A stretch of 64,000 bases of DNA from a virus (Duplodnaviria > Heunggongvirae > Uroviricota > Caudoviricetes). Positions 1 through 18,000 of this stretch are shown here, in pieces. The stretch lies in the IMG/VR virus record IMGVR_UViG_3300044641_000519, one strand, 5' to 3'. The translations under genes were made by a program, and so were the position numbers. Under the pieces are notes generated by a model, which did no database searches, had not been told where the DNA came from, and saw only the letters and a program-made list of their open reading frames with translations. Numbering within the stretch: position 1 is the stretch's first letter; each line of letters begins with the position of its first letter.

Positions 1-7
1 CCTAGAT

Positions 8-481
8 GTGTTTCAACCTCCACTAGATGTAAATGAATGGTTACGCATACCTATGGGCTATACACTAGAGCTATCCTTCTACGAACAGTTTAGCAAACAC
101 GAAGACCAGTTTCTATTAGTACACGATCATAGCTCTAACATATTCACAGACAGTGATGTCAATGTGCTTAGATATGGGTTGTTTAACTGTGAGCTATTAT
201 ATAATGATGTTGTTCCAGAAGAGCCTGTTCTATTTATAATGAACGCATTGATATTAGAGGAATGGAAACATGTTGATGTTTATAAGAACAATGAACTAAC
301 ACAAACACAAATCTTAGGCAAAGGACACTATTGGTTCAATAGTTACAAATTAGATGGAGAAGAAATACGTGTAGAAGTATATGACATTGATAAAAAATAC
401 TTATTTTTGTCTAAGAAATTTACATTAACCAAAGAGAACCTACCTCTGTTCAAAGAAAAAGGAATAATTAAATCAAAATAA
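8..481 (+). CDS. hypothetical protein. It has a GTG start, and the frame is open to the window edge, so the N-terminus may lie upstream.
   Basis: 157-codon ORF packed immediately upstream of the methyltransferase/glycosyltransferase cassette; no recognisable motifs. Confidence 0.35.
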   Translation: MFQPPLDVNEWLRIPMGYTLELSFYEQFSKHEDQFLLVHDHSSNIFTDSDVNVLRYGLFNCELLYNDVVPEEPVLFIMNALILEEWKHVDVYKNNELTQTQILGKGHYWFNSYKLDGEEIRVEVYDIDKKYLFLSKKFTLTKENLPLFKEKGIIKSK

Positions 482-482
482 A

Positions 483-1034
483 ATGGCACATCAAGCAGAA
501 CAAGCATTTTGCAGACTTGTAAAACAAGTTTTTCCTGAGTATTTTAAGAATGTAAATGTCTGTGATATAGGTTCACTAGACTTAAATGGTAACAACCACT
601 ATCTATTTGAAGACTATTCTTACATTGGTGTAGATATTGGTAAGGGTAAGAATGTAAATGTTGTAAGTAAAGGACATGAATACAGACCTATAGATGGTAA
701 GAAATATGACACTGTTATAAGCACAGAAGTGTTTGAACATGATATGTATTGGAAAGAAACTATAATGAATGTTATAGAAAACCTATTAAGACCAGGAGGA
801 TTGTTTCTATTTACATGTGCTACAACAGGAAGACCAACTCATGGAACTAGTATATTTGATCCACAAGATAGTCCATTTACAATACAGGATGATGAGTGGG
901 CTGGATATTACATGAACGTTACAGAACTAGATGTAAGAGAAGCAATAAACTTAGATAAGTATTTTTCTGCACATCACTTCTATGTAGATGACAACAGCTG
1001 TGATTTATATTTCTGGGGACTATTAAAAAAATAA
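483..1034 (+). CDS. class I SAM-dependent methyltransferase (putative)
   Basis: Gly-rich motif-I-like VCDIGSLDLNGN and the post-II-like LRPGGLFLFTCATTGRP typical of Rossmann-fold methyltransferases; overlaps the upstream stop and is translationally coupled to the downstream GT. Confidence 0.5.
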   Translation: MAHQAEQAFCRLVKQVFPEYFKNVNVCDIGSLDLNGNNHYLFEDYSYIGVDIGKGKNVNVVSKGHEYRPIDGKKYDTVISTEVFEHDMYWKETIMNVIENLLRPGGLFLFTCATTGRPTHGTSIFDPQDSPFTIQDDEWAGYYMNVTELDVREAINLDKYFSAHHFYVDDNSCDLYFWGLLKK

Positions 1035-1035
1035 T

Positions 1036-1728
1036 ATGCAAACAATAGATGTAATCATACTTACAAATACTAAGACTGAAAAGAGTCTTAGAATGACTTT
1101 AAGAACTATATACACCTTACGTGATAGTGAGGTGGGGTATAAGTTCAATGTGCATTTAGTGGAGTCAGGAAACGATCATACAAAGGACTATCTTGAAACA
1201 AAGATGGTAGCCAATTACATTAAGCCCAATGAACCATTTAACTATAACAAGTTCATCAATATAGCTATGAACTATGTAACATCAGAGTGGGTTATTATAT
1301 CCAACAATGATGTAGGTTATGAGAAGAATTGGTTAACTGAGATGATGGTTGTTAGTAAAGAAAGACCAGACATACATTCTTTCTCTCCAAAAGATCCTGC
1401 ATTATACATCAAGTACTTTGATTGGCATTTTATAGATAGTCCATCTAAATATTTTGAAAGTTATATTGTACATGAAGCACTGATGGGTTGGTGTTTAGTT
1501 GTTAAGAAGGAAGCACTAGATAAGATAGGTCCTTTTGATGAACAGTTTGATATGTATTACCAAGACAATGACTATGCAAGAATGTTAATTAAACATGGTA
1601 TCAAGCATGCGTTAGTGAGAGATTCTATTGTCTGCCATTTGAGAACAGTAAATATAACCAAGCTCACTCCTGAAAGCATTAAGAAAATGGAAGAAGACAA
1701 AATTAAATTTGAAAGAAAATGGGAATAG
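1036..1728 (+). CDS. glycosyltransferase, family 2-like (GT-A fold), putative
   Basis: N-terminal IDVIILTNTK segment resembling the GT2 'SVIIPTYN' start, an acidic NND/QDNDY DxD-like motif, size ~230 aa; sits in the GT cassette. Confidence 0.45.
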   Translation: MQTIDVIILTNTKTEKSLRMTLRTIYTLRDSEVGYKFNVHLVESGNDHTKDYLETKMVANYIKPNEPFNYNKFINIAMNYVTSEWVIISNNDVGYEKNWLTEMMVVSKERPDIHSFSPKDPALYIKYFDWHFIDSPSKYFESYIVHEALMGWCLVVKKEALDKIGPFDEQFDMYYQDNDYARMLIKHGIKHALVRDSIVCHLRTVNITKLTPESIKKMEEDKIKFERKWE

Positions 1729-2726
1729 TACAAGTAGCCACAGGATTAATTACCATCCCACCAAATGGTTGGGGTGCTGTAGAAAGACTTATATGGGCAT
1801 ATAAACAAGGACTAGAACAGTTAGATGAAACTGTAGATATACAATACATCAATCATGTAGAGAACAAACCTGATCAGATTGTACATACACATCTAGCAAA
1901 CCTAGCTATTGACTGCAGAGATAGAAACATTCCTTATATATACTCATTACATGACCACCATACAGAATGGTATGGTAAGGATAGTTGGGTGTATAACCAG
2001 AATGTAGAAGCTATGAAAGGAAGTATTATATCCCTTACGCATGCAGAATACTTGGTTGATTACTTTGATACAGTGGATAAGCTATTCTATCTGCCACATG
2101 GTGCTGATATTGAATTCTTTACACCAGACCATAGTCCAAAATCACATGCATTATTAATGATAGCTAATAATGGACTTGGTGGTGATTCAGGGTTTGATAG
2201 AAAAGGATTTAGATATGGCATTGAAGCAGCTAAAGAATTAGGATTACCTATCACTATAGCTGGTCATCCTGATAATAATAAGTTCTTTGAGATACATTCT
2301 GATCTATTAGACTATCCAAAGTTAACTTTAAAGTTAACAAATCCTACAGACGAAGAGATGAGAGAACTCTATCACACCCATACTATATTCTTACATCCCT
2401 CCATGCTAGAAGCAGGACATCCTAATCTAACATTGATGGAAGCCACAGCATGTGCAGTTCCTATTGTAGGAACATATAAAGGAAGTAGACACATGGATGG
2501 TATGTGGGTGATTCCTAGTATTAGTACAGAACAAATGATTACAGGTATAAAAGAAACTATCAAAACCTACGAGCACAGAAGAAATGAGATGTTGAAAGCA
2601 CGTGACAGTAGAAGCTGGTTAGAAGTGTGCAAGATATTAAAGAAGTACTACGATAACGTTCGTAAGATAAATAAAGAGTACACATCAGACATAACAAAAC
2701 AATTATACATAGAAGCATATGTTTAA
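1719..2726 (+). CDS. glycosyltransferase, family 1/GT4-like (GT-B fold)
   Basis: C-terminal FLHPSMLEAGHPNLTLMEATACAVPIVGT matches the GT4 signature (...E-A-x-A-c-G-x-P-V-I...); overlaps the upstream gene by 10 nt. Confidence 0.65.
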   Translation: MGIVQVATGLITIPPNGWGAVERLIWAYKQGLEQLDETVDIQYINHVENKPDQIVHTHLANLAIDCRDRNIPYIYSLHDHHTEWYGKDSWVYNQNVEAMKGSIISLTHAEYLVDYFDTVDKLFYLPHGADIEFFTPDHSPKSHALLMIANNGLGGDSGFDRKGFRYGIEAAKELGLPITIAGHPDNNKFFEIHSDLLDYPKLTLKLTNPTDEEMRELYHTHTIFLHPSMLEAGHPNLTLMEATACAVPIVGTYKGSRHMDGMWVIPSISTEQMITGIKETIKTYEHRRNEMLKARDSRSWLEVCKILKKYYDNVRKINKEYTSDITKQLYIEAYV

Positions 2727-3780
2727 ATATAACTTGAATCTAGTTAATGAATTATTCTTTGAACTTACACACACTCCTGAGAACAAAGAGTATAAGATAG
2801 TATTTTTAGATAAGAAGAAAGAACTATACAGCACCATCCTTAAGAAAGGAATGTGGGCTAAGTATCCTCAAAGATATCTTACTAATTACTTTGTAGAGAT
2901 ATGGGATGGGGAGATATTGAAAGAAAGAATTAGCTTCATAGATCACATGAAAGATAAGCGTGTGTTTATATCTTTTGAATCTAGTTCATTAGGAGATAGC
3001 ATTGCTTGGATACCATACTGTCTAGAGTTCAAGAACATGTACCAATGCGATGTCATAGTATCTACATTTAAGAATGAACTGTTTGAATCTGTATATCCAG
3101 AACTTAAGTTTGTAGGCAGAGGTGTAACAGTAGATAACATTATAGCAATGCTTGAGCTAGGATGGTTTTGGGATAAGCTAAAAGAGCCTACACATCCTGC
3201 CACTATACCATTACAACAAGCAGCATCTAATATATTAAACCTAAAGCACAGAGAGATACAACCTAGGATAGCTTTCACTCCTAAAGAAAGACCTATACTA
3301 AATAAATACATCTGTATCTCTACTAGATCTACAGCTCAGTGTAAGCATTGGTATTATTGGAAAGAGTTAATTAGAGAGTTACAAGAGATGGGATATGCTG
3401 TATTTGAGATGTCACAAGAAGCTGATGACTTGGGTGCTGATAAACTAGAAGATAAATCACTAGAGAATGTGATGAACTATCTACACCATGCAGACCACTA
3501 CATTGGTTTGTCAAGTGGTATAAGCTGGCTCAATTGGGGAATAGAAAAGAAAGGAACAATGATTTCTAACTTCACAGAAGAAGGTCATGAGTTTCAAAGC
3601 AATTGTATACGTATAACTAATAAGAATGTATGTAATGGCTGTTGGAACAATCCTCTGTTTAAATTCAATAAGGGTGATTGGAACTGGTGTCCTGAAAATG
3701 AAAATAGCCCTAGACAGTTTGAATGTCATAAGGCTATTTCAATGGAAGATGTTTTACTTAGTTTTAAATCTCTTCTGTAG
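2719..3780 (+). CDS. putative glycosyltransferase (GT9/heptosyltransferase-like) with C-terminal Cys-rich tail
   Basis: HHADHYIGLSSGISWLNWGIEKKGTMISNF resembles the GT9 donor-binding 'G-x-D-S-G-x-x-H-l-A' region; C-terminus CNGCWNNPLFKFNKGDWNWCPENENSPRQFECH is Cys-rich. Confidence 0.35.
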   Translation: MFKYNLNLVNELFFELTHTPENKEYKIVFLDKKKELYSTILKKGMWAKYPQRYLTNYFVEIWDGEILKERISFIDHMKDKRVFISFESSSLGDSIAWIPYCLEFKNMYQCDVIVSTFKNELFESVYPELKFVGRGVTVDNIIAMLELGWFWDKLKEPTHPATIPLQQAASNILNLKHREIQPRIAFTPKERPILNKYICISTRSTAQCKHWYYWKELIRELQEMGYAVFEMSQEADDLGADKLEDKSLENVMNYLHHADHYIGLSSGISWLNWGIEKKGTMISNFTEEGHEFQSNCIRITNKNVCNGCWNNPLFKFNKGDWNWCPENENSPRQFECHKAISMEDVLLSFKSLL

Positions 3781-3952
3781 GAACTTCTATTGCTCCTTGA
3801 GACTTAGCTAGTTCTAATGCTACAGCTTCAATAAACTTCAATATATCATTGCCATACATTGTAGGCAATTTCTCATTAGCATAGTTCATTAATAGTTGAA
3901 CCTTTTCTGCAGTCAAAGAAGGAACTGGTAGTTGTTTTGTTTCTTGATTCAT
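3764..3952 (-). CDS. small hypothetical protein (last gene of the minus-strand fibre operon)
   Basis: 62-codon ORF whose 3' end overlaps the convergent GT gene by 17 nt. Confidence 0.3.
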   Translation of the reverse strand: MNQETKQLPVPSLTAEKVQLLMNYANEKLPTMYGNDILKFIEAVALELAKSQGAIEVPTEEI

Positions 3953-4006
3953 AATATATGATTTTTAACAAAGGTAAGTTAACTAAATTAATTACCAAAA
4001 TTTACT

Positions 4007-4405
4007 TTATTCAATAATTGTAGTTGTTGTTGTAGTGGTAGTAGGTTCTATAGGTGCCTCAGTTGTTGTAGTTGTAGTTGTAGGTTCTATAGGAGCTTCA
4101 GTTGTAGTGGTAGTTGTAATTGGAACAGGAGGCACATAATCACCTGTGATTGTTAGGTTAAGTTGAGCAGCTACCCAGTCCCAAGCATAAGAATCCACTT
4201 CCCATTGTGCGTAGGCTTCACCTGTCATATTAAGGTTGCCTTGAGCCACTTGAATACCTTGTGTGCCATCTTCATTCTCTGTAAATAAAGCATAGTAGAA
4301 TGTAGCACTTGTTCCTAAAGTTACATTTATGGCATAAGCATTTAATATCTTAGCCTCTAAGTTTTGTCCGTTGTCCCATATTGAGACTGGTTGAATTGTC
4401 TTCAT
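4007..4405 (-). CDS. hypothetical virion protein with tandem Thr-rich linker repeats
   Basis: C-terminus contains two copies of TTTTTT(T)EAPIEP encoded by a ~42-nt tandem DNA repeat. Confidence 0.45.
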   Translation of the reverse strand: MKTIQPVSIWDNGQNLEAKILNAYAINVTLGTSATFYYALFTENEDGTQGIQVAQGNLNMTGEAYAQWEVDSYAWDWVAAQLNLTITGDYVPPVPITTTTTTEAPIEPTTTTTTTEAPIEPTTTTTTTTIIE

Positions 4406-4432
4406 TTTTATTTGTTTTTATTTTTATTTTTA

Positions 4433-6115
4433 TTAGCATGTTCCGTCAAACATTTGAATAGAAACTGTACCTCCACCAGTTACAACTTGCCCAGCAAATG
4501 ATCTACTTGTTCCAGTTGCACTTACGCAAGTAAGATTAGAAGAAGTGTCTATAACCTCCACAGAGTCATTGCTTATATTTGTATAAGATACAACTATTGT
4601 TCTTGATGCCCCAGTTTGCGTTGTTGTTCCAGATGCACCATTACCAGCTGTTATTGGGAATACAACACCACTTACTTGCACACTATTAATGGTTATATCT
4701 GTAATTGATGTACCAGCAGTATTATTAGTAATATCAACAAAAGCAGGACCTGCCGCAGTTGTAGTGGTGGTAGTTGTTGGAGTGTTTAATAATGCTTTTC
4801 TATATATTTGGCTCCAAGCACGAGCTGTTGTAGCACTGACTAAAAAACCAGATCCTCCATTTATACTATAGTTAAACTGCCCTATATTGTTTAACATCAT
4901 GGCAATATAATTGTTTGTAATACCTGTAGTGATAGCTGTACCACCAGCTATAGCAACATTATTAGTATACCCATCACTTTGTGCAAAAGAAGTACCTGAA
5001 TTAAATGATGCTATAACTAAAGGTGAAAATGATGAAGGAGAGTAGAATGCTGTAGTTGTAACCTCATTTGTAGCCCCCACCATAACTTGCCCATTATCTG
5101 ATATAGTTGCAGAGGTAAATCCTACACGTCTTGTGCTAGCAAAATAACTAACTGTATTTGAATACCTTTCAGTAAAGCTAGAACCAAAATTGTTTGTAAC
5201 AAATGCTTTTACTCCTTGTGTTCCACCAAGACCTGGTTCAAGATAGTCAGTTGTTAAAAACTGATTTTGACCTGTTCCATCTAAGGCAATATCAAAAAAT
5301 CTTGAAAACTCGCTACCACCACTTCTTGTCCAAGTAGATCCATAGTTAGTTGAGTAAATTCTAAATGACCAAGGTCTTGGAGTATTAATCCCTCCTGGAT
5401 CTACTTCATAAGAATAAACAGCAGTCATATATTGACCATTACCTGATACAGATATTTTAAATGGATAATTGTTATACATATTAACATTCATAGAATCTGT
5501 ATATATAGTACCAAATGAAACACCATAATCTGATGATGCTACAAGTAAAGCCTGTTTGAGACCTCCTGCACTCAAAGTGTTTGTTAGACCTGCTATACCT
5601 ATATATTGTCCATTATTAGACATAGCTACACCTGTTGGATAAAGGGTGCCACCAAAAACTCCACTTATTAATTTTGCTGTGAATGTAGCTCCTCCATCAC
5701 TAGATAGATAAACTGTAAGACTTAATGAATTAGTAACAACAGCAATGTATGTTCCTGTACTATCTCCTGCTATTGCTGTCCAAGTATAAGCAGATGTTAA
5801 ACCTGATAAAGCTGTAAAAGTGTTTCCCCCATCTGTAGATTTATAAGCAGCTGTTCCTGCCACCCCATACATTACATATGGAGAGGTACTAGTAATTCCT
5901 GATAAATCTTCTCTAGTTACTAATTGATTTGATGCTTTGGCAGCATATGTAGGAAGTGCTGTATTTATATTTACATAAGTGTTAGCTTCAGTTTTTGTGA
6001 TTTGCTTAAGACTGCTTGGTATAGTTGTCTTAGCTGTAAAAAAACCTTGAGTAACACCACTTTGTAAGTTATTAAAACTAATGGTCTGATTTTGTTGTAA
6101 ATCACTATATGCCAT
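4433..6115 (-). CDS. BNR/Asp-box repeat protein (sialidase-like beta-propeller); putative glycan-binding or glycan-cleaving tail appendage
   Basis: Four S-x-D-x-G-x-T-W/F Asp-box matches (STDGGNTF, SSDGGATF, SSDYGVSF, STNYGSTW); poly-Thr linker (PTTTTTTTAAG) before a C-terminal domain; immediately downstream of the fibre genes. Confidence 0.55.
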   Translation of the reverse strand: MAYSDLQQNQTISFNNLQSGVTQGFFTAKTTIPSSLKQITKTEANTYVNINTALPTYAAKASNQLVTREDLSGITSTSPYVMYGVAGTAAYKSTDGGNTFTALSGLTSAYTWTAIAGDSTGTYIAVVTNSLSLTVYLSSDGGATFTAKLISGVFGGTLYPTGVAMSNNGQYIGIAGLTNTLSAGGLKQALLVASSDYGVSFGTIYTDSMNVNMYNNYPFKISVSGNGQYMTAVYSYEVDPGGINTPRPWSFRIYSTNYGSTWTRSGGSEFSRFFDIALDGTGQNQFLTTDYLEPGLGGTQGVKAFVTNNFGSSFTERYSNTVSYFASTRRVGFTSATISDNGQVMVGATNEVTTTAFYSPSSFSPLVIASFNSGTSFAQSDGYTNNVAIAGGTAITTGITNNYIAMMLNNIGQFNYSINGGSGFLVSATTARAWSQIYRKALLNTPTTTTTTTAAGPAFVDITNNTAGTSITDITINSVQVSGVVFPITAGNGASGTTTQTGASRTIVVSYTNISNDSVEVIDTSSNLTCVSATGTSRSFAGQVVTGGGTVSIQMFDGTC

Positions 6116-6116
6116 A

Positions 6117-6380
6117 TTATTTTAATTTAGCTTCTAATTCTTCAATACGTTTTTCCAAACTAGCAACCTTTGCCACTAACACTTGTGCGTAAGACAAAGA
6201 TAAGAAACCATCTTCACTTTCTATCACTGCACTTGGTAATATTTCTTGTAAGTCCTGTGCGTAGTAACCTAATTCTTCTTTACCATCTTTAATGTATAGC
6301 TTAGGCTTTACAGCTTCTATTCCACTAATTATAGGGTTATCACTTATCTCTTTCTTTAAACGCTTATCTGAACTTTCAAA
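6117..6380 (-). other. peptidase S74 / intramolecular chaperone domain of the 1972-aa fibre (predicted autocleavage at S|DKRLK)
   Basis: SDKRLK motif encoded near 6366-6385, followed by a coiled-coil C-terminus. Confidence 0.6.
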
Positions 6381-9300
6381 GAATGATGTAGCTGTGACTG
6401 ATGAACTAAATGTAGCAGCACCTGTTGAATAATTTAAGATTAATGGAAACCCATTTGTTCCAACTGAATAAAATCCAAAATTATCTGAATTTTCATAAAT
6501 TCCTGTAAACCATCTTTGTACATTTACGCTACTATAATTTACTCCAGCTGAAGCAACTGATGTTCCTCTATTTGAATTTAAAGTTGCGTAAGTAGTACCA
6601 TTTATATTAACTCCATTATTAGTACCATAAGCACCACTAAATGAAGCAATACCACTTACTTGTAACTTTTGACCTGTGTCTGTTGCAGTTCCTATTAATA
6701 CATTACCACCGCTTGTGATACGCATACGTTCTGCGCTATTCGTTCCTAATACTAAAGGAATTGCTTGTGTTGTAACCATACCCATTGAGGTACTATCGGT
6801 AGCTATATAACCATATCTTGTACTTTGAGCATTATTCCAAAACTCCATTTGTCCTACACTATCAGCTGCTCTACCTCTTAATCTTAAATTTATTGCAGTA
6901 CTATTGTCGGCAACTACATCTAAAGGTGAACTTGGACTACTCGTTCCTATCCCTACATTTCCAGCATTAGTAATTGTAACCTTAACAGTATCATTAGTAG
7001 TAAATACAACATCTTTTGCACCAATACTACCAAAGTAAACTTTGTCTGCTAAAGCATCGCCTGTACTTGCATTTGCAAAACCAAAATGTGCAACAAGCGT
7101 CCCTGCATTATTTAGCAAATGTGTGCCTGAGTAACCACTTGCAGACTGATTGTATAATGACAATACTGCTGCTGCACTAGCATTTCTTACTACTGATAAT
7201 TTATATGAACCAACAGATGTAGTTCCAATTCCTACATTTGTGCCATCATCATAAATAACACTATTACCTAAAGATGTAGAACCTGTCCATTTTGAAATAT
7301 AATTGGTAGTACCACTACCTGTTACACCACTTCCACCACCTCCTCCAATAGTTACACCATTAATTTGGAATACACCATTAATGTTTACGTTACCATTAAC
7401 TTGTAAAGCTCCTCCACCTGTAATACCTGCAGTATTAATTAATACTTGGCTAGCTTGATTAATAGTCATTACAGTAGTTAAAATACTACTTTGTAATGTC
7501 TTAAAATATAAAACTCCACCAGTTCCTGCAAATTTACTTCCTTGTATTTGTGCTTTTGTTTGACCAATATCAGCCTTAAAGTTTAAAAAAGTATCACCTG
7601 CACTATTATCACCAGAGATGCTTAATGTAGCATTTGTTGTAGGTCCACCTACTATTACTTCACCACCGCTTGTGATTCTCATTCGTTCGGTAGGTCCAGT
7701 GTTGTTAGTTGCAGAAGTTGAAAATGTTAAATATCCATTACCTGATTCACTATATAAACTAATTACACTTGCCGCCTTTCCTGTATTGCTAAATGTTCCG
7801 TTAATTGGATTTCTTACATTTGATATTACCATTACATCAGCAGTAGCAATTGTAGCTACATAACCACCATAAGCAGAAGTTCCTGTTCTAAGCATTGCTC
7901 CACTTGTTCCATCAACTTGAAGTGTATTAAAGTTTGATACTGATTCTGGACTACTCGTTCCTATTCCAACGTTACCACCATTTGTAATACGCATTCTTTC
8001 GTTAAAAGATATAGCTGAACCTGCAGTTCCAGAAGCAGCAGTGAACCATCTAAATATACCTTCACCAGCATCGTAATTAGTAGACGCACCTGTTCTTGCA
8101 TAAATCCAACCTGATGCTCCATAATATGCGTTCGCACTTATAACTGGACCTCCACCACTACCAGAAAATAAAGCATCACCAACTCTACCAATTTCAATTG
8201 AAGTATATATACCACCACTAATCCAAGCACTTGGTACTACTCCGATTCCAACGTTACCACCGCTTGTGATAACAAGTTCATCATTACCAGAACCATTATA
8301 GTTCATTCTGTAACTATTGTCGCTATTAGTATAAATATCCCATCTATTTGTATTAGTTGAAATATCATATAAAGCTAAATAACCTCCTGCTCTTGCATTA
8401 ATAGCACCATTTGCCGTTACACTACTTGAGAATGTAGCAGCACCACCATTACCAATAGTCACTAAATCAGTTCCACCTGTACCTGTAATATTTATTGAAG
8501 CATCTGATGCTTTGTAATATATTGTTCTTGGACTACCACTTGCATTAGTTGCTAATGTTAATATGGCATTACTACCAGAACCTAAACTACCAATAGTTAA
8601 TCCATTTACTGCCGTTACACTACCACCAAATGTTCCATTTCCACTTGCAGCAAAATCACCATTACTACCACCTGTAGCTGATATATTAACTCCTGGTGTA
8701 CAAACGTGAGTTAATGTAGAACCTGTTTGAGCTGACCCTCCAAATGTAACTGTTTCATTGTTTAAAGGATACACCTCAACATTCATTGTACAGACATTAG
8801 GAGAATTGCTAGTTGCTGAAACTGAAAAGTTTTCATCATTATTACTTATAACTCTTAAAGTTAATAATGTGTAAATACCTGCTTGAGAGGTGATTAAAAT
8901 ATCTTGAAAATGATTAACTAATATATCAGCTGTTACGTTGATAACTACACTTCCAGTAGTGCCTTGTAATGTCATTCTAACAGCAGATGCTAAAGAATTA
9001 CCTGTTACATTACAAACCACTGTATATCCTGCATTACTTACATTAGCTGTAGAAACATATCTTTTAACAGCTCTTTCAAGTGAGCTTGAATTAAAGTAAT
9101 AATCTGTAGCACTTACAGTGCTTGAGAATGTAGCAGATCTATCAGTAGCAATAGATAATGCAGTTGTAAATGTATTAGAAGTGGCTATGTCAGCCCCACC
9201 TGAAACTCTTATAGTAAAAGGGACTGATGCAAATCCTAAAAAAGGATTCTGTCCTCCTATTTTTACAAACCCTAATCTTGGAACTGCTTGTGCATCTGTT

Positions 9301-12035
9301 CCAATATAAGTGGATTCTCCATTTACACTAATGGTACCAGTAGGTGAAAAGATTATATTATTAGTCCAAGTTCCTCCATTTAAATGCCAAAAAGCTAAAT
9401 CATAAGTAGCATCTTGTTGTAAAATCCAACCTCTATTATTTGTACTATCTAATATTGTAAATCTTGAACTACCTCCTACTGTATTTGAACTACCTGCTCC
9501 ATTTGCTATTATTTCAGCAGTAGCTCCTGTAGTTCTAATGTTACCAGTAAATGTAGCAGTTGTGCCATTTAAAGCTCCTGTCAACGTACCACCTGCTAAA
9601 GGTAAGTAAGTAGAAGATGCACTACTTGTAGTTAAATATGTATTTGAATCTATACTTCCATCTGCTTTTAAAAACTGAGTTGATGTACCACCGCTTTTTA
9701 TTAAACTATTTGCTGTTACAGAAGATGAGAATGTAGCTGTACCAGTTACCTGGAAAGTTGCACCATTACTTGCTTGAGTTCCTATTAATACGTAACCATC
9801 AGATGTGATACGCATACGTTCAACAACACTTGTAGCAGATGCACCAAATCCTGTTCCAAATGAAACACCTGCATTGTTATTGCCATTAAATTGAAGGTAA
9901 CCCAGCCATGTAGTATCTACCTTTTGTTGTATTCTGAAACCTGCACTTGTCCAAGTAGTACCATTAACAACACGAGTATTTGTTATTTCTAAATAATCAT
10001 CATTATCACCTGTATCAACTTGCAATCTTTGAACTAATGATTGGTTTCCTAATGTTGTCCCAAGGTTAGTCCCTACAACATTTAATTTGAATGATGCGTC
10101 AGCATTTCCTCCAATACCTATATTCTTATTACCATTCCAATCATAAGGAAACTCTATTTCACTACCAAGACCCTGATCTCCCCATCTTGATGTTAGTAAA
10201 CGAATAGATGATATTCTTACTGATGCAGCGTTGGTAGTAGTTATAGTTAGTCTAGCATAGGTATCTCCACCAAAGGGACTAATATAAAACCAAATAGGGA
10301 TAGCCTGATTACTATTTGATGATGTATGTCTAACTGTCCAACTGACATTGTCTGTAGAAGTTTCAAATACAATTGTTTTTGTTGATGTTACTCCTATATA
10401 TGTAAATCCAATAACTAACCAACTTGCATCGTTAAAAGAAACTCCTGTCCAAATCCATCTTGCAGAAATTATAGTTGTACCATTAATAATCTCAATATTT
10501 TGAGCTTGTTTTTGTGCAAATAATGCATTATTTAATGTTGCAGCATTATAAGTGGTACCATTAGCTGATGTTTGATATTGAGGTGAGTATAATCCAAATG
10601 AAAATACATCATGCCATAAGTATGGAGAAATAGGAGATTGTGCAATCTGTGAAGTATCAGATGTTATCACTGTATTTGTTAATGATCCATTCTGCTTAAA
10701 ACTCTGTAAACCATATCCAAAAATACCTCCAGTAGATGATACGTTTACTAAATTAGTTCCATCAAATGTTAAGTTAGCTTCAGCGTTTGCTGTATTAGTA
10801 GTTCCTAATGATGTAAGAATTCTATTATCTACTGCATTTGTAATAGTACTAAATCCAGTACCAGACGTACCAGAAGAACCAGCAGCACCATTGGCACCTG
10901 ATGTGCCAGATGTTCCTGTAGTACCACTAGTTCCCTTTGTACCACTAGTACCACTAGATCCTGCTACACCACTAGCTCCACTAGTACCAGAAGAACCAGC
11001 AGCACCTGATATACCAGAAGTTCCTGTAGTTCCACTTGTACCATTTATACCACTAGTACCACTTGTTCCTTTAGTGCCGCTTGTACCACTAGATCCTGCT
11101 ACACCATTTATACCAGATGTACCAGAAGAACCACTTGTAGCAGAAGTACCACTTGACCCACTTGTTGCAGAGGTACCAGACGATCCATTAGTACCTGATG
11201 TACCACTTGAACCACTGGTTCCACTAGTTGCAGAGGTTCCGCTTGACCCTGAGGTGGCAGAAGTTCCAGAGCTTCCAGACGTACCACTTGTACCAGACGA
11301 ACCACTAGTGCCACTAGTTGCAGAAGAACCTGAAGACCCACTGGTTCCTGAAGTTGCTGATGTACCACTAGTACCTCTTGTTCCTGCAATCCCTGAGCTA
11401 CCTGAAGTTCCTGCAGTACCATTACCTCCAGACGCACCATCCAAGTTTACTGTCCATGCTGTGAATGTACCAGATCCCACTGTTCTAGTTGGGGCTCCAA
11501 ATTGAAGAGCTCCTGTAGATGGGTTGTATGAAATAACCTCACACTCTTGAAAGTTTGTAATGCTATTAACTATTATTATAGATTGAGCCACTGTATAAGC
11601 CAACCCTGTTCCTACAGTGATTGTCCCAGCATTGCCTAAAGTGAAAGATGTTGTAGATGTAGTGGCATATCTATCTCCAGATAAACCTCCAGTACCACTG
11701 CTTCCAGAAGTACCAGTAGAACCAGACGTACCTGATGTTGCTGAAGTTCCAGACGTACCCTTAGTACCACTTGTACCACTTGATCCAGAGCTTGCAGATG
11801 TACCTGAAGAACCACTAGTCCCTGAAGTAGCTGAACTACCAGACGAACCAGATGTTGCAGATGTACCTGAGCTACCACTAGTACCAGATGTTCCAGATGA
11901 GCCACTACTACCAGAAGTAGCTGATGTACCTGATGAGCCATTTGTACCAGAAGTTCCACCAGTTCCTGAAGTAGAATAACTGATTGGTACTCCACTATCA
12001 GTCAAAAGATTATTAGTAATTAAAGCTATTCCCAT
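6117..12035 (-). CDS. giant tail fibre with collagen-like G-X-Y repeats, ERMRITSGGNVGIGT-type fibre repeats and a C-terminal S74 intramolecular chaperone (self-cleaving) domain
   Basis: Long (GTS/GSS/ATS)n triplet tracts; repeated ERMRIT[ST][GD]G.V.IG motif (5 copies); C-terminal SDKRLKKEIS...LEKRIEELEAKLK matches the endosialidase-chaperone/peptidase S74 signature. Confidence 0.8.
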   Translation of the reverse strand: MGIALITNNLLTDSGVPISYSTSGTGGTSGTNGSSGTSATSGSSGSSGTSGTSGSSGTSATSGSSGSSATSGTSGSSGTSASSGSSGTSGTKGTSGTSATSGTSGSTGTSGSSGTGGLSGDRYATTSTTSFTLGNAGTITVGTGLAYTVAQSIIIVNSITNFQECEVISYNPSTGALQFGAPTRTVGSGTFTAWTVNLDGASGGNGTAGTSGSSGIAGTRGTSGTSATSGTSGSSGSSATSGTSGSSGTSGTSGSSGTSATSGSSGTSATSGTSGSSGTSGTNGSSGTSATSGSSGTSATSGSSGTSGINGVAGSSGTSGTKGTSGTSGINGTSGTTGTSGISGAAGSSGTSGASGVAGSSGTSGTKGTSGTTGTSGTSGANGAAGSSGTSGTGFSTITNAVDNRILTSLGTTNTANAEANLTFDGTNLVNVSSTGGIFGYGLQSFKQNGSLTNTVITSDTSQIAQSPISPYLWHDVFSFGLYSPQYQTSANGTTYNAATLNNALFAQKQAQNIEIINGTTIISARWIWTGVSFNDASWLVIGFTYIGVTSTKTIVFETSTDNVSWTVRHTSSNSNQAIPIWFYISPFGGDTYARLTITTTNAASVRISSIRLLTSRWGDQGLGSEIEFPYDWNGNKNIGIGGNADASFKLNVVGTNLGTTLGNQSLVQRLQVDTGDNDDYLEITNTRVVNGTTWTSAGFRIQQKVDTTWLGYLQFNGNNNAGVSFGTGFGASATSVVERMRITSDGYVLIGTQASNGATFQVTGTATFSSSVTANSLIKSGGTSTQFLKADGSIDSNTYLTTSSASSTYLPLAGGTLTGALNGTTATFTGNIRTTGATAEIIANGAGSSNTVGGSSRFTILDSTNNRGWILQQDATYDLAFWHLNGGTWTNNIIFSPTGTISVNGESTYIGTDAQAVPRLGFVKIGGQNPFLGFASVPFTIRVSGGADIATSNTFTTALSIATDRSATFSSTVSATDYYFNSSSLERAVKRYVSTANVSNAGYTVVCNVTGNSLASAVRMTLQGTTGSVVINVTADILVNHFQDILITSQAGIYTLLTLRVISNNDENFSVSATSNSPNVCTMNVEVYPLNNETVTFGGSAQTGSTLTHVCTPGVNISATGGSNGDFAASGNGTFGGSVTAVNGLTIGSLGSGSNAILTLATNASGSPRTIYYKASDASINITGTGGTDLVTIGNGGAATFSSSVTANGAINARAGGYLALYDISTNTNRWDIYTNSDNSYRMNYNGSGNDELVITSGGNVGIGVVPSAWISGGIYTSIEIGRVGDALFSGSGGGPVISANAYYGASGWIYARTGASTNYDAGEGIFRWFTAASGTAGSAISFNERMRITNGGNVGIGTSSPESVSNFNTLQVDGTSGAMLRTGTSAYGGYVATIATADVMVISNVRNPINGTFSNTGKAASVISLYSESGNGYLTFSTSATNNTGPTERMRITSGGEVIVGGPTTNATLSISGDNSAGDTFLNFKADIGQTKAQIQGSKFAGTGGVLYFKTLQSSILTTVMTINQASQVLINTAGITGGGALQVNGNVNINGVFQINGVTIGGGGGSGVTGSGTTNYISKWTGSTSLGNSVIYDDGTNVGIGTTSVGSYKLSVVRNASAAAVLSLYNQSASGYSGTHLLNNAGTLVAHFGFANASTGDALADKVYFGSIGAKDVVFTTNDTVKVTITNAGNVGIGTSSPSSPLDVVADNSTAINLRLRGRAADSVGQMEFWNNAQSTRYGYIATDSTSMGMVTTQAIPLVLGTNSAERMRITSGGNVLIGTATDTGQKLQVSGIASFSGAYGTNNGVNINGTTYATLNSNRGTSVASAGVNYSSVNVQRWFTGIYENSDNFGFYSVGTNGFPLILNYSTGAATFSSSVTATSFFESSDKRLKKEISDNPIISGIEAVKPKLYIKDGKEELGYYAQDLQEILPSAVIESEDGFLSLSYAQVLVAKVASLEKRIEELEAKLK
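10775..11965 (-). repeat. coding collagen-like (Gly-Ser/Thr-Ser) triplet repeat tracts in the 1972-aa fibre gene
   Basis: degenerate 9-nt/18-nt periodic DNA encoding GTSGSSGTSATSGSS... Confidence 0.8.
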
Positions 12036-12058
12036 TATTCAAAGTTAGTTTATTTCTA

Positions 12059-15000
12059 TTATATAAATGTAAATTCTCTCCATGATGTACTTGTTTTAAC
12101 CCATAATCCTTCAACTCCATCAGTTTGATATACTATTAATCCTGTTTCAGGAGAAGCTATTGCTAATCTTTGAGCAGCTGTCATTCTTGGAGGTAAGAAA
12201 CCTTGTGTAGTTGAATTTACTGCAAGTCTTGCTGAAGGAATTTCTGTATAAGTTCCGCCATTTTGGATAAGTAGATTACCTGTTGTTTCAAACCATTGCG
12301 ACCATCTTGTTCCTCCATTGCTTAATATTGAAACACCTGCAGCTGTATCACTATATATACCTCTAGTATAAATAGATGGCACAACTATAACTGCTGAATA
12401 TATATTATTCCATCTAAAATTTGATAACCCTAATGTTCTTGTATTATCTGTTGATGGTATAATATTCCCTGCAACTCTTATTGCTGTATTTGTAACACCT
12501 GTAAACGCACCATTTGTAAATGTTGGGTTAATGTCTAAACCTACAAGTGTATCATTGTTTGCTGTTGCTACCAAAGTAGGATTAAAAAATACTCCTCTTG
12601 CTGTTCCACTTGTAGGACGTACAGTTGTACTTACTTGGAAAGGAGCAGTAGGGGTGGTAGTTCCAATACCCATTCTTGGTACAGGGAAAGCTCTAAAAGC
12701 CCATCTATCTCCTGCAAGCTGACCACTTACTGATAATCTAACTTGAACACCAGAGTCTAATGTTTGGAATGCTCCAGTTATAGTAACGTTAGTCCCTGAT
12801 GGTGTTCCAGTCCAACTACCAAGTCCCCAGTTAAATGTTGTTGATGAAGTAATAGTTACCCAATAAATTCTATTTGAGCTTCCTGTAAATCCAGTTACAT
12901 CCACATTTAATGTTCCTGTACCTGAACCATTATCTTTTACTAAATTGTATGTTGTACTTGTATATGGGTCTCCCTTTATTGTAGCATTTGCTAAGTTATC
13001 AGGATTTGTTGTGAAATATGGAGTACTTGCTGGTAAGCTAAATGAACTCCAAAAGTTACTATTTTGTCCAACAAATTGACTTGTAAACCCTGCAAACTTA
13101 AGTGGTTTCCATCCTGAACTTGCATTTTGCCAGTCACCAACAAACCAATGGAAAAAGTCTTGAACAGTGTCTGGATTGTCTGTCAATTTAAACTCATACA
13201 TTGTTTGGTCATTAGCATACTCCACAACGTTCATTGAAGCACCATCTGTTGATTTTTCAAATGTTAATGAGGCTACTTGACCTATCCCATTATTAACTAA
13301 TGTAATATTGTTTGTTCTAAGCCTAGTTGAATCAAAAAGTCCATAAGAAGAATTGTTTACTGCTGGTATAGTACCAGAAGTTACTGCTTGGTTTGTATCA
13401 GTAAGAGTTGTTGTGTTAACTCCAAATACTGAAATGTATGAACTATATGAATTTGAAACATTGCTTTTATATACTCTATATCCAGTTGCACCTTGAACTA
13501 ATGACCAAGATAAAGCTACAGAACTTGTTGAACCAGTTGTAACCACTGAAAGCTCATTGCTACCAGTAGTTAATAATCCCTCAGTATCATAGGCTACTAT
13601 TCTATAGAAATATGTGGCAGCAGGTAGTGTTCCACCAGAAGCAGAACCTACAGCAGAATTCAAAGTTGGAACTGTTAAAGAACCAATTAATAATTTACTA
13701 AATTTAGCTGCATGGTTTAATGACCTTATAGCAACGTTTAGATTATTAGCAAATGCACCATTGGTGAAAGTTGGATTTATATCCAAGCCCACCAACGCAT
13801 CGTTATTAGCAGATGCTACCAATGTAGAAGTTACTATTGTTCCTATTGCTAAACCACTTGCAGCAGTTGTAGAACCTGTTATTGTTGCTTGTCCATTTAA
13901 ACGAGTAGTACCTGTAACATCTAATCTAAATCCAGCATCTGTGAATGTACCTCCGTTTTGTAAAAGTAAATTTCCTGTTGTAAACCATTGACCTGATTTA
14001 GTTGCAAAAGCAGGATAAAATTCAAATCCAGATGTTCCTGAAGATAAGAATTGTCTAATGTGTCCTTGTATAAAATTAAAAGAAGGATTTCCTAAAGAAA
14101 ATAAAGCTGATGAGGATGGAACAATAGTTCCTGCTACTCTAATAGCATATAAATTGACACCTGTAAATGCACCAACTGAAAATGTAGGAGCAATATCTAA
14201 ACCAACTAAATTATCTCCATTCGCAGAAGCTACTAAAGTAGTATTAATTAATTGACCTCTACTTATTGCACTAACCGCAGTTTCAGTACCACCAACTGTT
14301 AATTGTGTTGCAGTACCTAAAGTAGTTGTTCCTATGCCTGTATCACCTGCTAAATAGTTAGCAGCAGTTCCATTCATATACAAGTTCCATCTATTAGTAC
14401 CACTTGGTATTTGTCCTTGAAAAGCTATATTAGTACCTGCTCCTGTCATAGAAGAACTAATAGCAAATCCTACTTGGGTAGTTATATTTGAACCAGCACC
14501 TATTGTCCCTTGAGTAGCAAAATAATGGAAATAAGTACCTAAAGTAAATGATGCAGCTTGTGTATTTAATTGACTAAGATTACTAAATACATTAGTAGTT
14601 ACATCACTTAATACAAAACCTGCTTGTGCAATTCCATAAGCAGTAGAAGCACCTGTAATGTTTTTAGCAACAAATAAACTATATCCTGTTAAACTTGTAG
14701 TACCTATGCCCAAAGCACCTGCTAAATAATTATCAGCTGTACCACCTGCATAAATATTAAACTTACCTGTTCCTGCTGAAAGGTTTAAATTTACTGCTCT
14801 TGATATAGTTGTAGCTGTATGGTCATTTATATTTAAACCATAAAAGTTAGCAATGTTTTGTGGTAAAAATGCTGTTTCAAATCCAATATAATTTGTATAT
14901 GTACCTGTATTTGTTGGGGGGCCTGTTGAACCAGTCTTATATCCAACCACTGTACCAAAGTTTCCATTACCTTGTGTAACTGCTATAAAAATACCATATT

Positions 15001-18000
15001 GTGCGCCTTGTGTAGCAGTTCCACTATTATTAATTAATCCTTGAAAAGCAACATATCCATTACCACTTGTTGTACTTCTATTTACTATAATCCTTGTATC
15101 ATTAGCAGTTAAACCATTATAGGTAAAAGCATCATCATTAATATTCCAAGTTTGTCTACTAATTATATTCCAACCATTTGCACTACCTGTAAAATTTCCA
15201 CTTGCACCATTTTCAAGTGAACCAAAATTATTACCTGCTGGTAAAACTTTTGTAACAGTACCACTTGTAAAACCATTTATAGCAGTATCACTACCTAAAG
15301 TAATCAAAGTACCATTATCAGTAATATTACTATTACCTATTGTAGTTGCACTTGTAAACTTAGCCACTGTATTAGTAGTACCAGAAACTGCCACTGATGT
15401 ACCAGATGATCCACTAGTGCCAGCTGTACCACTAGATCCTGCTGTCCCACTAGAACCAGAGGTTCCAGAAGTTCCACTTGAACCACTCGTACCACTAGTA
15501 CCACTAGACCCTGAAGATCCTGATGTTGCACTTGTTCCACTAGAACCAGAAGTACCACTAGATCCAGATGAACCATTAGTACCAGCTGTTCCAGAACTTC
15601 CACTTGTTCCACTTGTACCTGAAGAACCACTTGATGCACTTGTACCACTAGTGCCACTTGTTCCACTAGTTCCTTTTGTACCACTCGTTCCACTTGATCC
15701 AGACGTACCAGTTGAACCAGATGTACCACTTGATCCACTTGATCCATTTGTACCAGCTGTACCACTAGAACCTGAGGTGCCAGATGTACCAGAAGATCCA
15801 CTTGATCCACTCGTAGCAGAAGTACCAGAAGTTCCTGATGTTCCTTTTGTTCCACTAGTGCCACTTGAACCAGATGTACCAGTAGAACCACTAGTTCCAC
15901 TGCTTGCACTTGTACCACTTGTGCCACTTGAACCATTAGTACCAGAAGATCCATTAGTTCCAGATGAACCAGAGCTTCCACTAGTTGCAGAAGTTCCTGA
16001 GCTGCCTGATGTGCCAGAAGTTGCAGATGAACCACTAGATCCAGATGTGCCTGCTGTTCCACTAGAACCACTCGTAGCACTTGTACCACTAGATCCGCTC
16101 GTACCACTTGTAGCACTGGTTCCAGAAGAACCACTCGTTCCACTAGTGCCAGAACTACCACTTGTTCCAGAGGTGGCAGAAGTACCTGATGTACCCTTAG
16201 TTCCACTCGTACCACTTGAGCCTGATGAACCACTTGAAGCTGATGTACCAGAAGAACCAGATGTTCCAGAGGTGCCAGATGTACCATTAGCTCCTGACGT
16301 ACCAGAGGTACCAGAAGGAGGGTTGAATGTGGTTTGTGCGTAAGAATAATTGCTTGTGCCCTCTGTGTAGAAAGTTATTGTATTAGCAGAGCCGCCATTG
16401 TGTTGTGCATAGATTTGACAATATAGTCTGTCTGTTGCGTTCAATGCAGTTTGACCTAAGAAAAGATCAGTGAAAAACTCTTTGATGACACCGCTACTCA
16501 AAGATTCTGTGTCTAAGTTTGTAACACCTAGAAGAGTAGATGTTCCTCCTGTTGTATATTTATATAGCTCTATATCAACTGCTACATTTACATTTGCGTT
16601 GATAGAAAAGTGAGTGACCCAAGCCCAGTTTCCTGAAGGTAGATTTGTAGCATTTGGTACACCTGAATCTGTAGCATAAGTTGCTATTAGTGTACGAACA
16701 TTTTGTGTAACACTTAGTACTACAGTTTGTTCAGCAGCACCTGTTCCAATAGGTGACCACTCTTTATATGTAGGTGTGCCAAAAGCACTATTTGTATTTA
16801 CAGATTGATTTAAGTAGTATAAGAGACCTCCAGCTACACCACTTACACCAGAACTTCCTGCTGTACCAGATGTACCTGAACTGCCTGATGTTCCACTTGT
16901 TCCAGAAGTTCCTGAGCTACCACTTGTACCACTTGATGCACTTGTGCCAGAGGTTCCACTAGAACCATTTGTACCTGATGTTCCACTAGATCCACTAGTT
17001 GCTGATGTACCGCTTGAACCAGAAGTTGCAGATGTTCCACTTGTTGCACTGCTTCCACTTGTTGCACTTGTACCAGAAGATCCTGAGGTTGCACTAGTTC
17101 CAGAGCTACCATTAGTACCAGATGTACCGCTAGAGCCTGATGTACCACTTGTACCTGTAGAACCACTTGTACCACTAGTTGCACTGGTTCCAGATGTACC
17201 TTTTGTACCACTTGTACCAGAACTACCACTAGTAGCAGATGTACCAGAAGAACCAGATGTAGCACTTGTACCAGAACTTCCATTGGTACCTGACGTTCCA
17301 CTAGAACCAGATGTTCCACTTGATCCACTAGAACCACTTGTTGCTGATGTTCCAGAGCTTCCACTTGTTCCAGATGTTCCACTAGATCCTGAGGTACCAC
17401 TAGACGCAGATGTACCTGATGTAGCAGAAGTACCAGACGTGCCTGTAGAACCACTAGTTCCACTAGAACCATTAGTGCCAGATGAGCCTGAACTTCCAGA
17501 CGTACCACTAGTTGCAGATGTTCCAGAACTTCCACTAGTACCAGTAGTTCCAGAAGACCCACTTGTGCCTGAAGAAGCTGAAGTACCAGAAGACCCACTA
17601 GTTGCAGAGGTACCACTAGAACCTGCTGTTGCACTTGTACCTGATGAACCAGATGTTCCAGAGGTACCAGAAGATCCACTAGTACCAGAGGTAGCAGAAG
17701 TTCCACTTGTAGCAGACGTACCTGCAGTGGCAGATGTACCAGAACTACCAGCAGTGCCAGAAGTTCCTGAGGTGCCAACTGTTCCACTAGAACCAGATGT
17801 GCCTGATGTACCAGAGGTGCCAGAAGATCCATTTGTTCCACTAGTACCACCAGTACCTGATGAGCCAGAAGTTCCAGATGTTCCACTTGTTGCAGATGTT
17901 CCACTGGTTCCTGTAGTTCCACTAGAACCATTTGTTCCACTAGATCCAGAAGTGCCACTTGTTCCACTTGTTCCACTTGAACCATCTGTACCACTAGTTC

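Follow-up and report, generated by a model that had tools for sequence, protein, structure and literature searches.

The 64,000-nucleotide (nt) stretch of DNA from IMG/VR virus record IMGVR_UViG_3300044641_000519 (Caudoviricetes), referred to below as the window, begins with a compact plus-strand cassette of one methyltransferase gene and three glycosyltransferase (GT) genes that runs into the 3' end of an operon encoding two giant tail fibres. What does this cassette modify? The first-pass annotation of the window had proposed that the phage glycosylates its own Ser/Thr-rich fibres. This proposal gains support here from the sequence family of the last cassette enzyme, a homologue of the protein O-heptosyltransferases TibC and Aah (BAHT family), and from the co-variation of its gene with one type of fibre among related phages. 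The four open reading frames (ORFs) of the cassette were recovered as annotated; they constitute the fourth to seventh genes of a larger island and are given below with the two fibres proposed as acceptors.

483-1034, plus strand: island gene 4, 183 amino acids (aa), class-I S-adenosylmethionine (SAM)-dependent methyltransferase (PF13489 33.1 bits, cut-off 27; phrog_32762, E 4.6e-46)
1036-1728, plus strand: island gene 5, 230 aa, GT2-like (GT-A) protein (PF00535 24.1 bits, cut-off 23.3; phrog_22332, E 2.2e-14)
1719-2726, plus strand: island gene 6, 335 aa, GT4-type (Glycos_transf_1) GT-B protein (PF13692 33.5 bits, PF00534 30.9 bits)
2719-3780, plus strand: island gene 7, 353 aa, BAHT-family protein O-glycosyltransferase, TibC/Aah homologue (TIGR04414 226.7 bits)
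6117-12035, minus strand: 1972-aa tail fibre (PF01391 Collagen 93 bits) with a C-terminal Peptidase_S74 chaperone (PF13884 24.5 bits); proposed acceptor
11661-11975 and 10836-11456, minus strand: collagen-like G-S/T-S segments of the 1972-aa fibre (aa 21-125 and aa 194-400)
12059-20290, minus strand: 2743-aa tail fibre (PF01391 319.5 bits in 17 stretches); proposed main acceptor
15377-16330, 16805-18505 and 18719-19312, minus strand: collagen-like Gly-X-Y segments of the 2743-aa fibre, 1080 residues

The last gene of the cassette encodes a BAHT-family enzyme

The protein encoded at 2719-3780 had been described as GT9-like. It is related to GT9, but this description is too general, and the protein is of the TibC/Aah type instead. 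It scored 226.7 bits on TIGR04414 (autotransporter strand-loop-strand O-heptosyltransferase, Aah/TibC), for which the NCBIfam equivalog cut-off is 200, compared with 15.9 bits on TIGR02193 (lipopolysaccharide (LPS) heptosyltransferase I) and 21 bits on the Pfam GT9 model PF01075, which is under the cut-off of 22. Homologues fused to a second GT scored 304.6 bits (locus L031), 317.5 bits (L045) and 199.5 bits (L043) on TIGR04414, and automatic pipelines already name these phage proteins "autotransporter strand-loop-strand O-heptosyltransferase". TibC (PDB chain 4rap) aligns with the window protein from end to end (E 1.7e-39). In an AlphaFold2 (AF2) model built on an alignment of 40 homologues (predicted local distance difference test, pLDDT, 86.3), strands extend across residues 3-72 and are followed by an alpha/beta domain, an organisation that fits the N-terminal beta-barrel and GT-B domain of TibC. 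Using Foldseek, this model matched TibC with a template modelling (TM) score of 0.83-0.84 (E 3e-27), compared with 0.36-0.47 (E 1.6e-7) for WaaC, the next match; the TM score with the LPS heptosyltransferase II structure 1psw was 0.51. The homologue of the cultured Microcystis phage Mel-JY01 scored 20.5 bits on PF21129 (TibC_1st), under the Pfam cut-off of 27.

Roles have been assigned in TibC to Asp110 (catalytic base), to Thr226, Lys230 and Trp305 (donor binding) and to Arg286 (PMC4358343). Asp110 corresponds to D93 of the window protein, and the donor-binding residues correspond to T205, K209 and W270. The cysteines of the TibC iron finger (Cys339, 342, 358 and 370) correspond to C305, C308, C324 and C336, which are predicted to bind iron. 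All eight positions are invariant in 45 phage homologues; a BAHT copy from a Pacearchaeota bin (L221) is devoid of all four iron-finger cysteines. Ser265 of the window protein aligns with the Aah-type stereoselectivity residue. Characterised BAHTs are soluble, cytoplasmic enzymes that O-glycosylate Ser and Thr of a long, repetitive surface protein whose gene adjoins their own (PMC4358343, PMC3835316), and they read the strand-loop-strand shape of this protein rather than its sequence (PMC3835316).

The BAHT gene and one fibre type co-vary in related phages

The association between the enzyme and the fibres was analysed in loci collected from 45 viral contigs via BAHT, 80 via p1667 (the gene upstream of the fibres) and 80 via a conserved 198-aa gene located beyond the island. 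An ORF was classified as Pro-free S/T collagen-like when it contained at least 20 G-X-Y triplets in runs of at least 6, with S+T amounting to at least 0.40 and Pro to at most 0.02 of the repeat residues. Overlapping loci sharing at least 1200 41-mers were merged into groups, and the 30 groups in which the whole interval from p1667 to the 198-aa gene was visible were counted. BAHT and a Pro-free S/T collagen-like fibre were both present in 12 groups and both absent from the other 18, with no discordant group (Fisher p 1.2e-8, uncorrected for relatedness). The gene order in BAHT-negative groups is p3677, p1667, a fibre devoid of G-X-Y repeats or nothing, and the 198-aa gene, all on a single strand; some BAHT-negative relatives carry ordinary, proline-containing collagen-like ORFs. 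In a neighbour-joining tree of the C-terminus of p1667, a neighbouring gene whose history can be blurred by recombination, positive and negative groups were interleaved and at least 11 state changes were required.

Three groups had the fibre type with no BAHT in view, and in these the fibre ran off the locus. Walking along L149/L151 into the next 10 kb, where the pairing had been predicted beforehand, revealed that a GT-BAHT fusion (679 aa) is encoded there and converges on the end of the fibre gene; in this phage the fibre occupies a different genome position. Bacterial and archaeal genome assemblies provided 17 more BAHT loci when scanned with an alignment; a single-protein scan had found none. 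In five of these loci (L217, L220, L225, L229 and L231), mostly from metagenome bins (Bacteroides, Ignavibacteriaceae, Lentimicrobiaceae, Thermoplasmatales and Nitrosotalea), Pro-free S/T collagen-like ORFs are present within 8 kb of BAHT in other gene orders, and three such genes surround BAHT in L231. The sole classical arrangement was found in Trinickia (L226 and L227), where each BAHT gene is followed by an ORF of 1620-1636 aa. BAHT fusions were also seen in the Pacearchaeota, Thermoplasmatales and Nitrosotalea bins (L221, L225 and L229), two of them adjoining Pro-free S/T collagen-like ORFs; these contigs belong to archaeal viruses or are phage contigs placed in the wrong bin.

The pairing of BAHT with a Pro-free S/T collagen-like fibre is also present in the 735-kb phage LR756501 and in Mel-JY01 (L049, PP395634.1). 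At positions 2-3052 (plus strand) of the latter lies a fibre gene of more than 1000 aa with a Gly-Ser/Thr-Ser collagen-like region and a globular C-terminus. The deposited annotation missed this gene and has instead an antisense coding sequence at 739-2298 (minus strand; PEVPRVPLVPELPP...). The fibre gene is located two genes upstream of a 1226-aa GT4-BAHT fusion that is annotated 'methyltransferase FkbM'. In L031-L039, a GT4-BAHT fusion is still convergent on a tail-fibre gene. A 2-oxoglutarate (2OG)-Fe(II) oxygenase (11376-11975, minus strand; phrog_61, E 9e-39) and a tail-fibre C-terminal ORF converge on the island in these loci, and the oxygenase may provide a further modification of the fibre such as hydroxylation.

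The cassette is part of a seven-gene island of soluble proteins

The cassette is packed like an operon, with a gap of 1 nt and overlaps of 10 nt and 8 nt between successive genes. The assignments to SAM-dependent methyltransferase, GT2-like and GT4-like families were upheld using Pfam and PHROGs, only marginally for GT2; PDB sequence searches with these three proteins gave chance-level matches only. The description of the cassette as a methyltransferase and three GTs is correct for the genes it names and falls short in extent, as the start of the window cuts the cassette and two more GT genes are present upstream. The contig of L046, 99.93 % identical to the window DNA over 13.8 kb, displays the island upstream of the window start, and seven plus-strand island genes are found in L046 and in its close relative L002. 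The three genes that precede the methyltransferase gene are:

upstream of the window, plus strand: island gene 1, bona fide GT9 (PF01075 56.8 bits; L046/L002)
upstream of the window, plus strand: island gene 2, 881/899-aa protein with a Glycos_transf_1 domain (L046/L002)
8-481, plus strand: C-terminal 157 aa of island gene 3, a 328-aa protein (full length at L046 3668-4654 and L002 6767-7753)

The upstream GT9 weakly matches LPS heptosyltransferases I, II and III. The 328-aa protein is kept inside the island in L001-L004, L015, L016, L028 and L030. It gave no Pfam, NCBIfam, PHROG or PDB sequence match, a result that includes the window ORF 8-481, and a homologue search with the 157-aa fragment retrieved only four partial proteins; it is possibly a glycosyltransferase or another sugar-modifying enzyme not yet described.

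The constant core of the island consists of BAHT and one Glycos_transf_1 domain, as neighbouring genes or fused. The GT4 gene adjoins BAHT in almost all loci of L001-L029, overlapping it by 8 nt in the window, and the two are joined in a single 701-aa protein in L031-L039; such Rosetta-stone fusions of BAHT and Glycos_transf_1 occur in many phages. The methyltransferase is found in a minority of related islands, methyltransferase and GT2 are variably present among relatives, and both are accessory genes. The island of one lineage additionally contains FkbM methyltransferases, a DegT aminotransferase and a hexapeptide acetyltransferase. A DUF6165/DUF4254 protein of about 130 aa, encoded divergently from the island start in L002 (2758-3153, minus strand), outside the window, directly adjoins BAHT in 30 loci of three unrelated phage lineages (for example L031 11005-11385 and L043 7758-8147, both plus strand), and seems to be an unrecognised BAHT accessory.

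No membrane segment was found in the seven island proteins, in which the maximal 19-residue Kyte-Doolittle mean ranges from 0.84 to 1.32. The base composition of the island does not differ from that of the remaining window. In promoter and terminator scans of positions 1-6200, sites were no commoner than in shuffled sequences, and no terminator was found at the convergent junction.

The fibre stalks are collagen-like and devoid of proline

The richness of the fibres in Gly-Ser/Thr-Ser triplets, pointed out in the first-pass annotation, is real, but the segments concerned amount to 312 + 1080 = 1392 residues and not to about 1500. As both giant proteins match Pfam Collagen, these triplets are collagen-like G-X-Y repeats; the S74 intramolecular chaperone that terminates the 1972-aa protein is characteristic of tail fibres. 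The collagen-like residues of the two fibres consist of G (0.29), S (0.33-0.38), T (0.22) and A (0.06-0.07), with Pro at 0.000-0.002, D+E at no more than 0.006 and S+T at 0.55-0.60. GTS (188) and GSS (121) are the triplets recorded in the census of both fibres, and about one sixth of the triplets begin with Ala instead of Gly; the 2743-aa fibre contributes 151 GTS and 98 GSS triplets and has no proline. The typical collagen-like composition, with Pro in the X position and charged residues, is therefore not seen in the window fibres; in bacterial collagen-like proteins, 19-31 % of X positions are Pro (PMC8968730). The DNA of the repeats is degenerate (60-80 % matches, with periods that are multiples of 9 nt), indicating that the repeat is maintained at the protein level and is no product of recent slippage. 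Both strands of window 15337-19292 contain long ORFs that are antisense to the repeats or read in another frame (for example 16944-18554 and 15417-16343, both plus strand); they are by-products of the codon pattern of the repeats, where the local GC content is 0.43-0.46.

A strand-loop-strand-like unit, 'ERMRITSGGNVGIGT', occurs in 6 copies in the 1972-aa fibre compared with 0.08 in shuffles. It was considered as a common denominator of BAHT-linked fibres and rejected: it is also found in L009, L011 and L012 and is absent from most BAHT-linked loci, so that it is at best a secondary acceptor. In L009, successive short fibre genes are separated by inserted ORFs starting MAY[VL]YRHIRLDKNEPFYIGIG (13640-14473 and 15641-16537, minus strand) that resemble GIY-YIG homing endonucleases.

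Homopolymeric Thr linkers in at least six virion proteins had also been put forward as O-glycosylation substrates. The runs themselves are not fortuitous, with 13 runs of at least five Thr in the window compared with 0.62 expected in residue shuffles (maximum 4). They are carried by five proteins and not six, the protein encoded at 55203-56363 having two TTTT runs only. Near the fibres, poly-Thr was found in 4/18 BAHT-negative and 3/12 BAHT-positive groups (0.75 and 0.67 runs per 10,000 aa, respectively). As poly-Thr is equally frequent in relatives that have no island, it is a general feature of these phages and no evidence for the target of the island. In the muzzle-domain protein (43348-48570, minus strand), eight terminal poly-Thr runs (T6-T10), 2-5 residues apart, precede a Cys-containing C-terminal domain.

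A proposed glycosylation island for the tail fibres

We consider, with a probability of roughly 0.72, that the cassette forms the 3' portion of a cytoplasmic island of seven glycosylation genes, the products of which would decorate the tail fibres of the phage itself. From the observations described above we infer an acceptor, an order of steps, a sugar and a role. Late in infection, the soluble island enzymes would act in the cytoplasm on newly made fibre chains. BAHT would move a first sugar from a nucleotide sugar onto Ser and Thr of the Pro-free (Gly-Thr/Ser-Ser)n stalks of both giant fibres (6117-20290), and may also glycosylate strand-loop-strand units such as RIT-S-GG-NVGIG. The GT4-type partner, fused to BAHT in other phages, would add a second sugar, the glycan would be extended or branched by the accessory GT9, the 881-aa GT and the GT2, and the SAM-dependent methyltransferase would probably cap it. 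The expected outcome is a densely glycosylated stalk with about 820 candidate Ser/Thr per pair of chains.

With 0 % Pro and almost no charged residues, the stalk would need another stabiliser, and the sugars could stand in for proline in stiffening or stabilising the helix, as well as shield it from proteases. In the proline-poor cuticle collagen of the vent worm Riftia, stability is provided by O-glycosylated threonine, and by analogy the same logic may apply to the window fibres. As for the sugar, the Aah-like Ser at the stereoselectivity position and the second GT9 in the island are consistent with a heptose (ADP-heptose by homology). Given the loss of Arg286, we propose a heptose donor only tentatively, at somewhat less than even odds.

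Several observations weigh against this reading of the island. The known BAHT acceptors are beta-helical strand-loop-strand motifs and not collagen-like repeats. In L030-L045 and LR756504, BAHT is present with no Pro-free S/T collagen-like ORF within 10-12 kb. As the island adjoins the fibres, their co-inheritance could partly reflect linkage. No gene of a heptose-nucleotide pathway was seen, complete genomes not having been scanned for them. In the enzyme itself, the sugar-binding Arg286 is replaced by Val251, and every virus-type copy has V, T, A, I, S or C at this position. The beta-hairpin thumb (Phe265/Val266 of TibC) is deleted, 10-13 residues being missing here from the window protein and from most phage copies. 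This thumb links TibC dimers into a dodecameric ring (PMC4358343). TibC and the Trinickia copies keep the full thumb and Arg286. With both elements lost, the handling of donor and substrate may differ from that of TibC, and alignment and model assign the window protein to the BAHT family as a member of a distinct, predicted 'thumbless' viral subtype.

The island could act on other phage proteins instead of, or besides, the stalks, namely on the capsid or on poly-Thr linkers in virion proteins such as the muzzle. The excess of poly-Thr runs in five window proteins is in line with this, and so are the glycans that mycobacteriophages carry on Ser/Thr-rich C-termini of capsid and tail tube, as quoted in PMC12619734. 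We regard it as unlikely given that poly-Thr is equally common in groups devoid of BAHT (4/18 against 3/12 of those with it) and that the S/T collagen-like fibre is the gene that tracks BAHT. The most serious caveat is pure linkage, in which BAHT and the S/T collagen-like fibres would be passengers of a single recombination cassette, the GTs acting elsewhere or being inactive. Fibre modules are known to be exchanged particularly often, the genes lie side by side, and the state changes were counted on a gene that is itself a neighbour. However, the pairing is kept whether the genes are convergent, co-directional or embedded, at another site in the genome (L210) and where BAHT is only 31-40 % identical, and the catalytic residues are invariant, which makes linkage alone rather improbable.

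Alteration of the host surface, by heptosylation of the LPS core or by modification of the capsule or of a host adhesin, would block superinfection or change adsorption, much as serotype conversion does. Such a role is often proposed for phage GTs (PMC8008677), GT9 and GT4 families are typical of LPS-core loci, and the upstream GT9 weakly resembles LPS heptosyltransferases I, II and III. In contrast, BAHT obtains 226.7 bits on the protein O-heptosyltransferase model and 15.9 bits on that of LPS heptosyltransferase I, the island proteins are soluble, unlike those of Gtr-type systems, and a role at the host surface gives no reason for an island that comes and goes with one type of fibre repeat. 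This alternative, which had been raised in the first-pass annotation, is disfavoured and appears quite improbable. The same applies with more force to hypermodification of DNA, the other alternative raised there, in which the GTs would glycosylate modified bases of the phage genome. Phage GT clusters are capable of this, as quoted in PMC12619734, but the BAHT family acts on protein with no member known for DNA, no hydroxymethylase or base-modifying gene was found in or beside the island at the loci examined, and the island is located at the end of a fibre operon, outside any replication module; we consider this explanation highly improbable.

Returning to glycosylation of the fibres, a more specific proposal can be made, to which we give even odds. 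The viral BAHT subfamily, thumbless, devoid of Arg286 and usually fused to GT4, would be a dedicated hyper-O-glycosyltransferase for Pro-free (Gly-Ser/Thr-Ser/Thr)n stalks, a class of fibre stalk not recognised before; the glycan would replace proline or hydroxyproline as stiffener or stabiliser of the helix, and enzyme and substrate would be transferred together between crAss-like phages, cyanophages, huge phages and elements found in archaeal bins.

Relation to known glycosylation systems

The closest relatives are TibC and Aah (TIGR04414; PDB 4rap, 4rb4). The window protein shares with them the family, assigned by a curated hidden Markov model cut-off, the combination of beta-barrel, GT-B domain and four-Cys iron finger, the catalytic Asp and the Thr/Lys/Trp donor residues; in both cases a soluble cytoplasmic enzyme is encoded beside a very long, repetitive, Ser/Thr-rich surface fibre. 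TibC and Aah are bacterial genes adjacent to an autotransporter beta-helix, whereas here the genes are those of phages and the neighbour is a collagen-like tail fibre. TibC has the thumb and Arg286, and the phage copies are thumbless with Val, Thr, Ala, Ile, Ser or Cys at this position. The phage BAHT is also usually paired with or fused to Glycos_transf_1 within an island of several GTs, which points to an oligosaccharide instead of single heptoses.

Gtr-type serotype-converting cassettes of temperate phages encode membrane proteins that act on undecaprenyl-linked sugars and O-antigen. They have phage-borne glycosyltransferase genes in common with the island, in which all proteins are soluble and the key enzyme is a protein glycosyltransferase instead; no match to a Gtr family was found among the cassette proteins using Pfam, PHROG and NCBIfam. 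The repeats of the exosporium protein BclA are rich in proline (GPT), and we know of no involvement of a BAHT in its glycosylation. BclA and other exosporium proteins of Bacillus and C. difficile share with the window fibres an O-glycosylated collagen-like Gly-X-Thr filament, the glycosylation being proposed here from the genes; they differ in being bacterial and proline-rich, compared with 0 % Pro in the window fibres. Glycosylation is present in a few bacterial collagen-like proteins, BclA among them, and has been suggested to promote their hydration and stability (PMC8968730); the BclA-type exosporium glycan is capped by a methylated sugar, 2-O-methylated anthrose (PMC6222408).

Mimivirus hydroxylates and glycosylates its own collagen-like proteins (PMC8968730). 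The glycans of Mimivirus collagen and fibrils and of chlorovirus capsids are, like those proposed here, made by a virus-encoded, host-independent machinery; these are eukaryotic viruses with unrelated enzyme families, and the linkage in Mimivirus is via hydroxylysine. In mycobacteriophages, according to Freeman et al. 2023 as quoted in PMC12619734, phage-encoded GTs decorate the phage's own structural proteins on Ser/Thr-rich segments. The targets there are capsid and tail-tube C-termini, compared with a collagen-like stalk and an initiating BAHT here, and the host clade differs.

Full-text literature searches gave no paper connecting TibC, Aah or O-heptosyltransferases with phages, and literature searches gave none tying phage collagen-like fibres to glycosylation. 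They likewise gave none tying crAss-like phages to fibre glycosylation, consistent with the earlier statement that it is not described for these phages. What is known is thus the enzyme family and the concept; what appears new, judging from the sequences, is the viral carriers, the substrate class and a recognisable structural subtype.

Neighbouring genes and affiliation of the phage

The convergence of the cassette on the 3' end of the fibre operon was confirmed, the minus-strand genes being located at 3764-3952, 4007-4405, 4433-6115, 6117-12035 and 12059-20290. Those between the island and the fibres are:

3764-3952, minus strand: 62-aa ORF closing the fibre operon; its 3' terminus and that of BAHT overlap by 17 nt; a gene call is also present in L046-L048
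4007-4405, minus strand: 132-aa protein with a C-terminal poly-Thr / EAPIEP tail; homologues beside fibres in L010, L012, L019, L020 and L022
4433-6115, minus strand: tail protein of 560 aa, with a T7 linker and several copies of an S-x-D-G-G-x-T-F motif

The 62-aa ORF has no family match in Pfam or PHROGs. The 560-aa protein has no Pfam match; about seven S-x-D-G-G-x-T-F/W-like units, reminiscent of Asp-box/BNR beta-propellers (sialidase-like), are followed by the T7 linker and a C-terminal domain. Shorter ORFs of this kind are found 3' of the fibres in BAHT-positive relatives (L065, L107, L210 and L211).

The crAss-like affiliation of the phage holds in the sense of a distant relationship, on the basis of the portal, 26-29 % identical to many Crassvirales portals, and of the crAss muzzle domain (PF25731, 112 bits) in ORF 43348-48570 (minus strand). 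The closest capsid is that of Leptolyngbya phage Lbo-JY46 (26 %). Megablast of positions 1-6200 against an annotated phage collection detected no nucleotide-level relative. An SbcD-like DNA-repair exonuclease (50691-51941, minus strand; phrog_704, E 3.6e-45) is encoded among the structural genes, and the 1667-aa protein p1667 (20443-25446, minus strand), beside the fibres, has a weak exonuclease-like stretch. These two proteins and the 3677-aa ORF (25446-36479) resemble the giant ejected proteins of crAss-like phages.

Significance

Experimental proof of virion glycosylation in tailed phages is limited to very few systems, those of mycobacteriophages, and the island described here would be a second, mechanistically different one. 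The system seems widespread in freshwater crAss-like phages and beyond, and it is directly testable, as the cultured phage Mel-JY01 has the same gene pair. The BAHT family would gain a new substrate class and a role outside virulence, and the existence of a collagen-like stalk that has no proline at all would find a possible explanation. For the phages themselves, the island predicts host-recognition organelles coated with glycans, which would bear on adsorption, on resistance to proteases, on stickiness to mucus and polysaccharides and on recognition by antibodies.

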